From: a virus
Virus record (IMG/VR): IMGVR_UViG_3300023084_000003
Strand: one strand, 5' to 3'
DNA: 64,000 nt
The notes under the pieces are model-generated. The model worked only from the letters and a program-made list of their open reading frames with translations. It was not told where the DNA came from and ran no database searches. This document shows positions 17,435 to 23,525 of this stretch, in pieces (the stretch's first letter is position 1; each line of letters opens with the position of its first letter). Position numbers and translations under genes: made by a program.

Positions 17435-17902
17435 ATGAGGCGGCACGTGGCGTATGGTGGAAGGTTTAGACCAAAGAACCCCGTAAAATATAAAGGTGAT
17501 CCAACAAAAATTTATTATAGATCTATGTGGGAGTTCAAATTCTTTCGTTATGTTGATGAACACCCGCATGTTTTATGGTGGGCTAGTGAGGAATATGTAA
17601 TTCCATACTATTCACCAATTGACGGTAAGAGGCATCGGTATTTTCCTGATGTTGTTGTTTGTAAAAAAGGACCGGATGGAACTAAATCTACTATGATGAT
17701 TGAGATCAAACCAAAAGGACAAACAAGACCGCCGGATAGATCTAAAATGAAAACGGCTAAGGGCAACTTATCAAGGCGATATATTAACGAGGTGAAAACG
17801 TACGGTATCAATGAAGCAAAGTGGAAAGCAGCTCGAGCGTGGTGTGCACAACGTGGATGGACATTCCACATATATACTGAGGACCAATTAGGAATCAAAT
17901 AA
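17435..17902 (+). CDS. gp4: Head completion nuclease gp4
   Basis: FRPKNPVKYKGDPTKIYYRSMWE..WASEE..HRYFPD..IEIKP..NEAKWKAA. Confidence 0.92.
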   Translation: MRRHVAYGGRFRPKNPVKYKGDPTKIYYRSMWEFKFFRYVDEHPHVLWWASEEYVIPYYSPIDGKRHRYFPDVVVCKKGPDGTKSTMMIEIKPKGQTRPPDRSKMKTAKGNLSRRYINEVKTYGINEAKWKAARAWCAQRGWTFHIYTEDQLGIK

Positions 17903-18528
17903 TGGCTGAGATATTTAGCAATATTCTATCACAAGGTATTAGAGCGGGTCAGATGCCTGCTCGTACAGCACAGGCTCGTGAATGGTATAGAGACCAAGCA
18001 AAAGAAGTTACTCGGTCATCTCGTAACAGAACTCGTGCCGATCAATTAATAAGAGAGATTCGTAGAGATGGCGATAGACCACAGCGCAGTCAATTTAGAC
18101 TAGGCGACATGTATCTTTTTACCTATGATCCAAAGCATAAAGACAAGCTTCCGTACTACGATAGGTTTCCTCTTATTTTTCCAATAAATAAAGCTAAGGG
18201 TGGATTTCTAGGTATTAATATGCACTACCTACCGCCAGTATTAAGAGCAAAGTTAATGGATCAGTTGTATACTGTTACGACAAATAAACGTTTTGATGAG
18301 ACTACAAGATTGAGATTGTCATATGATATTTTGAACGGTGCGGCTAAGTTTAGAGAGTTTAAGCCGACAATCAAACATTATCTCAATGCTCATGTGAGAA
18401 CAAAGCCAGCTTACATTTATCCAAGTGAGTGGGATGTTGCATTGTTCTTACCAACACAGAAATTTGTCGGTGCAAATGCTACTCAAGTTTATGCCGACTC
18501 TAGAAGAATTATAAGGGCATCACGATAA
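17902..18528 (+). CDS. gp2: DNA end protector gp2
   Basis: MYLFTYDPKHKDKLPYYDRFPLIF..GFLGINMHYLPP..KHYL..ALFLP. Confidence 0.92.
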   Translation: MAEIFSNILSQGIRAGQMPARTAQAREWYRDQAKEVTRSSRNRTRADQLIREIRRDGDRPQRSQFRLGDMYLFTYDPKHKDKLPYYDRFPLIFPINKAKGGFLGINMHYLPPVLRAKLMDQLYTVTTNKRFDETTRLRLSYDILNGAAKFREFKPTIKHYLNAHVRTKPAYIYPSEWDVALFLPTQKFVGANATQVYADSRRIIRASR

Positions 18529-19319
18529 TGGCATTTAACTTATCACAATTCAAATCCCAGATGGACTGGTTCGGTGGACCAGATCGTGCCTCTTTATTTG
18601 AAGTTGAGCTCAGTGGCTTACCTTTAACTAAATCGAGAGCGGGTTCATATGACCTTAAATTTTTCTGTAAAAACGTAGCCATACCGGGCATGATCTTTAA
18701 CCCTGCTCAGTATGAAGCCGTGGGTCAGATGCGTAAGGTCTATCCTATGGGATTCAACCCAGAACCAGTACAAGCAATCTTTTTACTTGATGCTGATAAA
18801 CAAGTACTTACATTCTTTCATGGCTGGGCTCAGAGTATGGTAAACTTTAGTACCGCGGGTGGAGCATTCTCTGCGGTTGACGGTACAAAACCATTTGAAA
18901 TTAATTATCGTGATGATTACGCATGTCGAATGGTTATCAAACATTATAGTGCAAACTATTTGCAAACCGGACAATACTATGAGGTAATTCTAGATAAAGC
19001 GTTCCCAATTCAAATGGGTGATGTGGATCTTGCATGGGAGAATGGTGACAGTTTTGTTGTTCTACCAGTAAGTATTCAATATGATAGAATCGAGTTCTCA
19101 GGTGAAAGATATGGTTATCCTATAGGCGGGGATGGAAACAGCCTACTTAAATTACTTACAGCAGCCGGTAGAATCAACGACATTATGGGCGGTGGTATTC
19201 TTCCAACTGATGTACAAGATGCAGTTAATAAACTCACTGGAATTAACAGCGAATTTGATAATATTTCTAGCAAAGGTCGAAGTCTCGCAAACCAGGTGGG
19301 TAGATTCTTAGGTGGATGA
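18528..19319 (+). CDS. gp54: Tail tube initiator (gp54/gp19-like)
   Basis: LFEVEL..FFCKNVAIPG..FFHGW..AFPIQMGDVDLAWE tube-protein pattern. Confidence 0.7.
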   Translation: MAFNLSQFKSQMDWFGGPDRASLFEVELSGLPLTKSRAGSYDLKFFCKNVAIPGMIFNPAQYEAVGQMRKVYPMGFNPEPVQAIFLLDADKQVLTFFHGWAQSMVNFSTAGGAFSAVDGTKPFEINYRDDYACRMVIKHYSANYLQTGQYYEVILDKAFPIQMGDVDLAWENGDSFVVLPVSIQYDRIEFSGERYGYPIGGDGNSLLKLLTAAGRINDIMGGGILPTDVQDAVNKLTGINSEFDNISSKGRSLANQVGRFLGG

Positions 19320-19336
19320 ACAGGAGAAATTAAATT

Positions 19337-20035
19337 ATGCTACCAAAAATTGATCTTCCTATTTTTGAAACAACCTTGCCATCAACAGGTGAGAAAGTCA
19401 AATATAGAGTGTTTACAGTAAAAGAAGAAAAAATTCTTCTTGTTGCTTCTGAAAGCGAAGACCCAGAACAAAACGTCTTAGCAATCAAGCAAGTTTTAAA
19501 TAATTGTTTAATTGATACAGATGCTAGCAAACTAGCTATGTTTGATATGGAATATATGCTTCTACTTATCAGAGCAAGATCAGTAGAAAACGGTGTTAAG
19601 TTTAGCATAGTAGATCCAGACACAAACGAGCAAGTAGATTTGGAATTAGATTTAGATGAGGTAAAGGTTACCAAAGATCCTAATCATACTAATCAAGTTC
19701 CTATTAACGATGACTATGTTCTATTTCTAAGATACCCTACAATAGATGAGTTCATTAAAATCGCTAGTATCGATCCTTCAGATCCTTTAGCGAACTATGT
19801 AATTATGATTTCTTGTTTAGATAAAGTCGCTTCTGAGGACGAAGTCTTTGAATTCCATAAGTATACTCAAAAAGAAATTGATGAGTTTATGGAGGGAATA
19901 TCGGCACCGGTTGTAAAAGGAATTCAAAATTTCTTCGACACCATGCCAAAGCTACGTCATGAAGTATCTTATAAGAATAGTAACGGAGATGAGAAAACTT
20001 TTGTTATTGAAGGAATTAACTCTTTTTTTTCCTAG
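19337..20035 (+). CDS. gp26: Baseplate hub assembly chaperone gp26
   Basis: MLPKIDLPIFETTLPSTGEKVKYRVFTVKEEKILL..LAMFDMEYMLLLIRARSV..FFDTMPKL. Confidence 0.9.
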   Translation: MLPKIDLPIFETTLPSTGEKVKYRVFTVKEEKILLVASESEDPEQNVLAIKQVLNNCLIDTDASKLAMFDMEYMLLLIRARSVENGVKFSIVDPDTNEQVDLELDLDEVKVTKDPNHTNQVPINDDYVLFLRYPTIDEFIKIASIDPSDPLANYVIMISCLDKVASEDEVFEFHKYTQKEIDEFMEGISAPVVKGIQNFFDTMPKLRHEVSYKNSNGDEKTFVIEGINSFFS

Positions 20036-20205
20036 TGCTGAGTCATATTAGCCTCAAGGACTATTACAGAATTAATTTCTCGATGGCTCAGCACCATAAA
20101 TACTCTATAAGTGATATTGAAAATTTGATACCATACGAAAGAGATTTGTATTTTAGTATGCTGATTAGTCATATTCAAGAACAACAACAGGCACAGCAAG
20201 GTTAA
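20023..20205 (+). CDS. gp51: Baseplate hub assembly catalyst gp51, in the -1 frame of gp26
   Basis: Not in the ORF track. The frame reads FFLVLSHISLKDYYRINFSMAQHHKYSISDIENLIPYERDLYFSML, matching the gp51 pattern of marine T4-like phages; start ambiguous (frameshift, GTG 20035 or ATG 20083). Confidence 0.8.
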   Translation, partial: FFFLVLSHISLKDYYRINFSMAQHHKYSISDIENLIPYERDLYFSMLISHIQEQQQAQQG

Positions 20206-20209
20206 TTAA

Positions 20210-22270
20210 ATGGCAGTATCAGAAGAAACACAAGCTATCATAGATAGACTTAAAGCAGAAGGTGATTTAATTCGCAATAGCGGAACTAATTCTCTGCGCA
20301 CGATGACTATCAAATTAGATAAGTTTGAAGGTTTGTTTACAAGTATTAATAGACAACTTGTTGCTCAGACCGATCTTTTGAGAGCTCAGGCCGGATTAGC
20401 AGCTCAAGCCCGTAGAAACGAAGAAACAAGAAGACAATACGAAGAACTTACTCCTCCAACAGTAGAAAACGATTCGTCACCGGCTACCTCAGGCCCAGGA
20501 CGAAGTGGAACTGAAAGAAGAATAGACGACGTAGCTAGAAAGCTTTCATCTGCTTTGAGTCTTAAGAATCTAGCAGTAGGCGCTGCTGGAATGTTTGTCG
20601 GATATAATTTCCTTAAAGGTTTCATTAATCAAAAGTATGATGGAGCTTGGGACAAGATGGAAACCGGGATTGGTAGCCTCGGTAGAAGTCTTGCTAATAT
20701 TGACACAACAAAACTAACTGAAAATATTACAAACTTTGTTGATTCTCTACCCAAGCTTACAAATATGATTAATGACATTACTAAAGCATTTCAAGACTTT
20801 AAAACAAAATGGGAAGAATATGGATGGACAGATCTGATCAGTGGCATATGGAATGCTTTAAGCAACGTTACTCTTACCATACTTGGACTGAAAGCAACCA
20901 TAGCTGGTTTTAGAGCCTCTACTGCAATTGCCAATTGGAGAGCTTCTAGAAATGCTATAAAATTGTCAGGTGGTGATCCAACAAAAGTTCCAAAGCCAGA
21001 TTTACCAGTTGCGTCATCAAAAACACCAATTGGTGTGTCAAAAGATGGCAGACCAATCTATGACGATCCTTTAAAACCGGGAAGATATCTAGACGAAACT
21101 GGTAAAATAATTCCTGATTCTAAATTACCAGACGGAATGTCTAGTAATCCAAGCGGTAAGGTTACTACAAATCTTGGAAACATTGATCTGAGTGGAAGAA
21201 ACTTCGTAGTAAAAGATGGAGAATTCTATTCTAGATCTAAACCTGATACTCCACTTAGAGGTGCGGCAAGAGACGCTGCACAACGAGCATTGAGTGCTGA
21301 CATTATTGGTGGCAGAGTCCATATACCTGGCATTAGTACATCACCTCCTATAAGAGCAACTATTTCTGATATTGGAAAGCAAGCTGGGCAAAAGCTGAGA
21401 CCTAAAATTGTTTCTCTTGCCAAAGATAAAGTTTGGAAAGTTTTCGGAACCGCTCTTCCAATTATTGGCATGGGCGTTGGAGCTTGGCTTGCTCTTAATA
21501 ACTTATTTAAAGGAGATTATACATCTGCGGCAGCCAACGGCGTATCCTTGTTTTTGCCTACAATATCTGGTACCGCTGTAGATATTGGAAGTGTTGCTAC
21601 AGAAATTTTCTTTGAAATGTCTGAAGAAGCCTTTGGAGAAAAGACTACCTTTAATCCTGCTAATGAAGCTCACGTAGACTTCATGGTGATTATTGGACAA
21701 GAAGTAGAAAAAGCAATTGAACAATATCAAAAAGAGCAATCAGACAAAAAAAGAAGAGAATTTGACGCTTTACCAGCAGATGAAAGAGCTCGCATTTTGG
21801 GACAACAAGAAAGCAAATTAGGTGAATACTATCGCGGGCAAGATCCGAACTATAGTGTTCTAGAAGATATGTACGCTGTTCCAAACTTTAGAGGACAAAC
21901 AAGAGATAACTACACCGGTCCTTCGTCTTTCTATGGATATGGAACAGGCCCAAACTCTAATACGCAATATCGTTACACACCAAATTTTGGATCTGACGGT
22001 AAGTTTAGATATTTTGATAGAGAAGAACTCGGAACCATCCAAAAAATGTCTTTTAATGGAGGAAGATTTAACAACAGTATGATTGGTCTAGCATCATACG
22101 GAGGAGTTGGCGGTGCTCCTGTTGTAATTAATGCACCTCAAATAAGTGCGCCTGTTGTGAATAATGTAGAAGGTGGGAAGTCGGCCAACTATATTCAGAT
22201 GGCCTCCTTCGGTGGTGGCGGGGGCGGCTTTGGAAGCGACGACCCCTACAACCTATCATTTATTTCGTAG
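20210..22270 (+). CDS. Tape measure / gp29-like hub protein
   Basis: Long helical Ala/Gly-rich protein directly after gp26/gp51; ends APVVINAP..VVNN as in T4-like gp29 homologues. Confidence 0.65.
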   Translation: MAVSEETQAIIDRLKAEGDLIRNSGTNSLRTMTIKLDKFEGLFTSINRQLVAQTDLLRAQAGLAAQARRNEETRRQYEELTPPTVENDSSPATSGPGRSGTERRIDDVARKLSSALSLKNLAVGAAGMFVGYNFLKGFINQKYDGAWDKMETGIGSLGRSLANIDTTKLTENITNFVDSLPKLTNMINDITKAFQDFKTKWEEYGWTDLISGIWNALSNVTLTILGLKATIAGFRASTAIANWRASRNAIKLSGGDPTKVPKPDLPVASSKTPIGVSKDGRPIYDDPLKPGRYLDETGKIIPDSKLPDGMSSNPSGKVTTNLGNIDLSGRNFVVKDGEFYSRSKPDTPLRGAARDAAQRALSADIIGGRVHIPGISTSPPIRATISDIGKQAGQKLRPKIVSLAKDKVWKVFGTALPIIGMGVGAWLALNNLFKGDYTSAAANGVSLFLPTISGTAVDIGSVATEIFFEMSEEAFGEKTTFNPANEAHVDFMVIIGQEVEKAIEQYQKEQSDKKRREFDALPADERARILGQQESKLGEYYRGQDPNYSVLEDMYAVPNFRGQTRDNYTGPSSFYGYGTGPNSNTQYRYTPNFGSDGKFRYFDREELGTIQKMSFNGGRFNNSMIGLASYGGVGGAPVVINAPQISAPVVNNVEGGKSANYIQMASFGGGGGGFGSDDPYNLSFIS

Positions 22271-23133: not shown

Positions 23134-23164
23134 TATTTATATCACATTATTTAGGAGATGTCAA
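23134..23164 (-). promoter_or_regulatory. Overlapping early (TTGACA-17-TATAAA) and late (TATAAATA) promoter for hsp20
   Basis: TTGACA at 23159-23164 and TATAAATA at 23134-23141 on the minus strand. Confidence 0.65.
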
Positions 23165-23525
23165 CTTTTTTTTCAAGAATTGCGTGTGCAATAATGTCCC
23201 CGTTCTTAAGGGCAACTAAACTGTCACATGTATTCTTGACTATCAATTTAATTTCAGAAGTCTCTTCTACAATCTGAACACACGAAGCGAGAACAAGCGA
23301 TTTCTTAAGTGCCCAATCCTCTTTAATATAAATCTTTGCAATGTATCCTTCCGGCACTTCAAGAGTCTGCCCTGTTGGAATAATTGCTCTTACATCTGGA
23401 ATCAACTGTAATGCATCCGCATCTGGACCGAATCCTTTTACATGCATTTTTTGTAGTTTATTCCAATTATTATAAGTATCAACAAAGTCTCCATGCTTTA
23501 AGGAGACGGCAATATCAATCATCAT
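23151..23525 (-). CDS. Degenerate dUTPase-fold protein
   Basis: RAIIPTG..VPEGY..ALKKSLVL..IVKN..LKNGDIIAH follows the trimeric dUTPase pattern, but the RSG and DxDYRG motifs are lost. Confidence 0.55.
   Translation of the reverse strand: MMIDIAVSLKHGDFVDTYNNWNKLQKMHVKGFGPDADALQLIPDVRAIIPTGQTLEVPEGYIAKIYIKEDWALKKSLVLASCVQIVEETSEIKLIVKNTCDSLVALKNGDIIAHAILEKKVDIS

Follow-up and report, generated by a model that had tools for sequence, protein, structure and literature searches.

A probable −1 frameshift joining gp26-like and gp51-like coding sequence in an uncultured marine T4-like phage

Short and long tail assembly chaperones in lambda and T4-like phages

In phage lambda, the tail assembly chaperones gpG and gpGT depend on a −1 frameshift just upstream of the tape measure gene, and this frameshift is reported to be conserved in tail assembly chaperone genes (Xu, Hendrix & Duda, Mol Cell 2004). 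Chaperones of this type come as two products in a fixed ratio, both required for tail assembly and neither present in the virion. The gp26 and gp51 proteins of phage T4 are hub assembly chaperones (Leiman et al. 2010, PMC3004832). In T4 gp51 (249 aa), a full PF12322 domain spans residues 1-201 (E 3.9e-52) and precedes a part matching phrog_634, while T4 gp26 (208 aa) carries PF12322 only and ends 3 aa past an FF dipeptide; thus, T4 encodes the long and the short form as two paralogues. Their genes are found on opposite strands, and gp27 and gp28 separate gene 51 from the tape measure gene 29.

The idea of a gp26/gp51 frameshift is published in principle for T4-like phages, in a study of these chaperones (Vladimirov, Gautam & Davidson, Virology 2022; 566:9-15) considered here as described by the papers that cite it (PMC10885494 and PMC12846349). 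According to the PRFect paper (PMC10885494), which cites this study, some T4-like phages have, in place of frameshifting, a short gene and a long one that is a fusion; according to the paper on phage Adele (PMC12846349), which also cites it, poly-T slip signals are present in the TAC-N genes of T4-like phages. As far as these descriptions go, the 2022 study and the present locus have in common the protein family (gp26/gp51, PF12322), the logic of a short and a long form and the poly-T with which the short gene ends. Since the principle has been in print since 2022, the general picture of tail assembly is unchanged by the analysis presented here, which adds one more well-supported case of a recoding event missed by public annotation and, with it, an RNA stem as candidate stimulator; a clade-specific 3′ stem may be the only part that is new.

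The locus lies in a stretch of 64,000 nucleotides (IMG/VR record IMGVR_UViG_3300023084_000003), hereafter the window, which covers part of a tail module (GC 38%) and comes from an uncultured marine T4-like phage. Judging from the sequence, its gp26-like gene very probably makes two helper proteins, a short one of 232 aa and a long one of 289 aa, and programmed −1 frameshifting by the ribosome, as for lambda G/GT, is the likely route to the latter, at the heptamer U_UUU_UUU of this tail assembly chaperone gene. Compared to T4, the short product resembles gp26 and the predicted long product resembles gp51 along its whole length; in T4 there are two paralogous genes, whereas the phage of the window has one gene with a putative frameshift, placed directly before the tape measure gene. 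By these comparisons, the gene of the window is the single-gene, presumably frameshifted, form of the gp26/gp51 family.

The likeness to lambda G/GT concerns the order of the genes (chaperone, then tape measure), the X_XXY_YYZ heptamer near the 3′ end, the predicted minor long form sharing its N-terminus with the short one, and the modelled fold of the N-terminal domain (see below). In contrast, the lambda proteins have no detectable sequence similarity to those of the window. The short form of the window, at 232 aa and with extra domains past residue 88, exceeds that of lambda in size, and the 58-aa extension is the shorter of the two; the slippery sequence is G_GGA_AAG in lambda and U_UUU_UUU in the window, which also has a clear 3′ stem.

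Gene order, protein families and the two coding frames

The genes of this module are on the plus strand. Genes for a gp4-like head completion protein (17435-17902), a gp2-like DNA end protector (17902-18528) and the tail tube (18528-19319) precede the gp26-like gene (19337-20035), whose Shine-Dalgarno sequence AGGAG (19322-19326) is located 10 nt before the ATG. In the gp4-like protein there is a match to PF08722, the N-terminal domain of TnsA-like endonucleases (E 1.3e-21). The 232-aa product of the gp26-like gene, corresponding to the short chaperone form (TAC-N), matches PF12322 (T4_baseplate) almost from end to end (profile positions 3-218 of 219, E 3.5e-53) as well as phrog_150, baseplate hub (E 1e-59); a single PF12322 match was found in the window, and a single one in the complete 194.6-kb genome of a relative.

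Searches of the PDB by sequence gave no match for the gp26-like protein or for the tape measure candidate, and a Foldseek search of the PDB with the AlphaFold2 model of the gp26-like protein (pLDDT 84.9) gave none at E <= 0.001. When residues 1-88 of the model were compared by VIA-align, the top row was 3fgx (Z 7.8). It was followed by the HK97 tail assembly chaperone 2ob9, with 82 residues aligned at an rmsd of 3.4 (Z 7.6), and by YqbN, 3klu (Z 6.3), after which an unrelated row has a Z of 4.2; these Z values are middling, and the top rows agree with one another. On the strength of this model, the N-terminal domain of the gp26-like protein is predicted to have the tail assembly chaperone fold.

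Directly downstream of the chaperone locus is a gene of 686 aa (20210-22270), preceded by the Shine-Dalgarno sequence AAGG (20198-20201) 8 nt before its ATG and starting 5 nt past the end of the −1 extension described below. Its product has a weak match to phrog_1283 (E 0.0032), and its positional orthologues match tape measure PHROGs (e.g., phrog_167, 5.7e-9); no significant similarity to T4 gp29 was detected by BLASTP or hhalign. From its position (that of gp29), its size, the phrog_1283 match and the PHROG matches of its orthologues, this is the probable tail tape measure gene, in agreement with the preliminary description of this DNA, which had placed the gp26/gp51 locus just before the tape measure. 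The tape measure candidates of the clade (L006-L081) are very divergent, with 17-36% identity to that of the window and lengths of 548-690 aa, and some of them carry lysin-type matches (phrog_10341, endolysin; phrog_1047, tail associated lysin).

The anatomy of the junction is largely as first described. On direct reading, the gp26-like gene ends with AAC TCT TTT TTT TCC TAG, the stop codon occupying positions 20033-20035; the T8 run (20023-20030) includes the slippery heptamer T_TTT_TTT (20023-20029), which has the form X_XXY_YYZ in the gp26 frame. Past the heptamer the −1 frame is open for 58 codons (20029-20205), up to the TAA at 20203-20205, and would provide the gp51-type C-terminal domain of the long form, the conceptual fusion being of 231 + 58 = 289 aa. 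The junction peptide needs to be corrected: it had been given with two phenylalanines (GINSFFLVLSH), but a −1 slip yields three (...INSFFFLVLSH...). The first ATG of the −1 frame is indeed at 20083, and the GTG at 20035, which opens an ORF of 56 aa (20035-20205) matching phrog_634, overlaps the stop codon (TAGTG); as claimed, this GTG is not preceded by a well-spaced Shine-Dalgarno sequence (none 5-13 nt upstream), and the same interval upstream of the ATG is also devoid of one. A Shine-Dalgarno-like GAAGGA, conceivably a stimulator of slipping, is found 9 nt upstream of the heptamer; since it encodes conserved E-G residues, no such role is claimed for it.

Several observations indicate that the −1 frame is coding sequence ahead of its first ATG. 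The gp51-like sequence had been proposed to begin right at the slip site, and the alignment of relatives bears this out: a conserved −1 peptide, L.L[SC]H..L..YY...F..[AV]QHHKY, starts at the codon overlapping the stop, and its variable sites are the third positions of the −1 frame. The 58-codon extension matches phrog_634, baseplate hub assembly catalyst (E 1.1e-23), covers positions 241-276 of phrog_150 and aligns unbroken to residues about 200-249 of T4 gp51; aligned together with T4 gp51, the conceptual fusions from the window and from seven relatives are collinear with it across the junction.

In public records, the second ORF is annotated as a separate small gene in 9/9 opened GenBank entries with the same layout, under the names gp51, 'baseplate hub assembly catalyst' or 'hypothetical protein', its start varying between entries; ribosomal slippage is marked in none of the annotated GenBank records opened. 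In 54/63 cyanophage-type relatives the first ATG comes 18 codons past the start of the conserved peptide, and g51 of S-RSM4 (L002:3706-3893) is annotated at 44 aa, with 18 conserved codons omitted. Annotation pipelines could correct the second ORF in hundreds of T4-like phage genomes.

Conservation of the putative slip site and predicted structure of the downstream RNA

Relatives gathered from IMG/VR and GenBank provided 128 distinct junctions from several families, among which 125 have T_TTT_TTY in the gp26 frame 0-2 codons before the stop; the U-run and its frame are conserved in these relatives. The phages that keep the heptamer include the marine clade of the window itself (gp26 61-68% identical), S-RSM4-type cyanophages, the rhizobiophage phiN3, the Methylophilales phage Melnitz, a Nitratidesulfovibrio (Desulfovibrio) phage, the Aeromonas phage phiAS5 and a KVP40-like Vibrio phage. 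At the protein level FF is itself conserved, and T4 gp26 has it as well; since this explains part of the T-run without any slip, the evidence for a slip site must rest on the silent positions. At the first Phe codon, TTT is used by 52/52 close and 63/63 cyanophage-type relatives, to be compared with 79% and 76%, respectively, elsewhere in these genes. The codon before FF varies in the amino acid it specifies (S/T/N/D, as AGT, ACT, TCT, AAT or GAT), yet its third position is T in 51/52 close and 63/63 cyanophage-type relatives, with 31-79% expected from codon usage.

The combination of a heptamer with a long open −1 frame is beyond chance. Shuffles of the window gave an expectation of 14.7 +/- 5.0 T8 runs, of which 3 are observed, so that these runs are depleted; among 75 ORFs of at least 100 aa (19,164 codons) there are four in-frame T_TTT_TTY heptamers, and the one in the gp26-like gene is alone in lying near a stop and in leading into a long open −1 frame, of 58 codons where the other three have 0-4. 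A second T8 run (23166-23173; A8 on the coding strand) is located 13-20 nt before the stop of a minus-strand ORF (23151-23525).

Ribosomal −1 frameshifting uses an RNA structure 5-8 nt downstream of the heptamer. In the window, a stem of 12 bp can be formed between 20035-20046 and 20083-20094, the 91-nt fold having an MFE of -21.9 kcal/mol (z -2.4). When 51 distinct relatives were analysed by RNAalifold, a 9-bp core of the same stem (20037-20045 with 20084-20092), 7 nt past the heptamer, was returned unprompted; taken together, the stem is of 9-12 bp and begins 5-7 nt past the heptamer. The outer pairs 20035/20094, 20036/20093 and 20046/20083 are not conserved among the relatives, and conservation is therefore claimed for the 9-bp core only. 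In this core 87.7% of the cells are paired, compared with at most 54% when the partner columns are slid, and the observed covariation was reached by 0/500 shuffles. The pair 20041/20088 is UA in 22 relatives, AU in 16, UG in 8 and broken in 5; along the gp26 tree, whose deep branches are weak, it switched about six times, mostly with compensation, while an independent-pairs test of the same position counted one pair on well-supported branches, too few for power. The codons in the arms are rare ones: CTG is used for Leu in 48/51 relatives (4% elsewhere) and CAG for Gln in 48/51 (27% elsewhere). At the level of sequence comparison, the downstream stem is supported both by covariation and by the rare codons fixed in its arms.

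In the S-RSM4-type cyanophages the hairpin is another one: CUCUUCC pairs with GGAAGGG around a loop of about 10 nt, starting 8 nt past T_TTT_TTC (L093:1605-1628 and 53 other cyanophage-type loci); its 5′ arm occupies the same place as that of the window's clade, and its codons are similarly skewed, Leu being CTC in 54/54 (8% elsewhere) and Gly being GGG in 50/54 (12% elsewhere). We consider it an evenly balanced proposition that true ribosomal −1 frameshifting depends here on clade-specific 3′ RNA structures, the long-range stem in the marine clade and the short hairpin in the cyanophages. Such frameshifting would run contrary to the hint, given by the title of Vladimirov et al. 2022, that translational frameshifting is avoided by T4-like phages, and the structures could set the ratio of short to long form in each lineage.

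The mechanism that we propose would be as follows. Most ribosomes would translate 19337-20035 and stop at the TAG, releasing the 232-aa gp26-like protein; a minority would slip back by one base, with two tRNA-Phe on U_UUU_UUU (20023-29), and would read the −1 frame to 20205, producing a 289-aa protein whose last 58 residues form the gp51-type domain. The downstream stem probably pauses the ribosome and raises the rate of slipping. By analogy with lambda, the part shared by the two products may coat the tape measure protein, whose gene is adjacent, and tube or hub subunits may be recruited by the extension. We infer all of these features, namely the production of the fusion, the proportion of long to short form, the part played by the stem and the proteins bound. 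The heptamer, the coding character of the −1 frame, the stem, the gene order, the collinearity with gp51 and the fold all support the proposal that gp26/gp26-51 is the T4-like equivalent of lambda G/GT, which agrees also with the 2022 study as its citing papers describe it.

Other routes to the gp51-type domain

An alternative route to the long protein is transcriptional slippage, in which RNA polymerase would slip on the T8 run and insert one U too many, so that ribosomes could read the altered mRNA without shifting frame. Genes that use this route are marked by a homopolymer of about 8-9 or more, conserved in length and not in frame. Bacterial RNA polymerase slips at runs of this length (as in Thermus dnaX and Shigella mxiE), and the run is T8 in the window and T9 in two relatives; however, it is only T6 in 63/63 cyanophage-type and in 8/52 close relatives. 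In the cyanophage-type relatives, moreover, the second Phe codon is fixed as TTC, though TTT is the usual one (76%). The hairpins known to stimulate slippage sit 5′ of the run, whereas the conserved structures described above are 3′ of it, at the distance of 5-8 nt that fits ribosomal pausing. The frame of the T-run is fixed in any case by the FF codons. The title of Vladimirov et al. 2022 speaks for a non-translational route in at least some phages; for the phage of the window, on the balance of these observations, we regard transcriptional slippage as unlikely.

A second alternative dispenses with the fusion: a gp51-like protein of 56 aa would be started at the GTG at 20035 by termination-reinitiation at TAGTG. 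This is in keeping with the stop/start overlap of the window, with the ATG or GTG found at that codon in 32/52 close relatives and with the separate gp51 ORF of the GenBank records. Moreover, two distant relatives have a TAATG overlap and no slippery heptamer, namely the Vibrio phage VAP7 (Ackermannviridae; GTT TTT CGC TAA, L087:3160-3185) and the Vibrio phage K369 (CTT TTC AAG TAA, L090:3140-3165); from these sequences, the small gp51-like protein of both seems to be made separately, so that a separate small protein appears workable in some lineages. On the other hand, the codon is GCG or ACG in the remaining 20/52 close relatives and a start codon at the stop overlap is absent in 63/63 cyanophage-type relatives, yet the peptide is conserved from that very point. 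Reinitiation also leaves aside the constraint on the heptamer at synonymous sites, the lack of a Shine-Dalgarno sequence before the GTG of the window, and T4 gp51, in which the two parts are naturally fused. For the window, reinitiation is thus improbable, and ribosomal frameshifting is preferred.

Finally, that a sequencing error in the homopolymer, a kind of sequence prone to errors, or a frameshift mutation has split a single 289-aa gene is hardly credible, the two-frame layout being repeated in 125 independent assemblies and isolate genomes and the stop codon standing one codon past the heptamer in 49/52 close and 63/63 cyanophage-type relatives.
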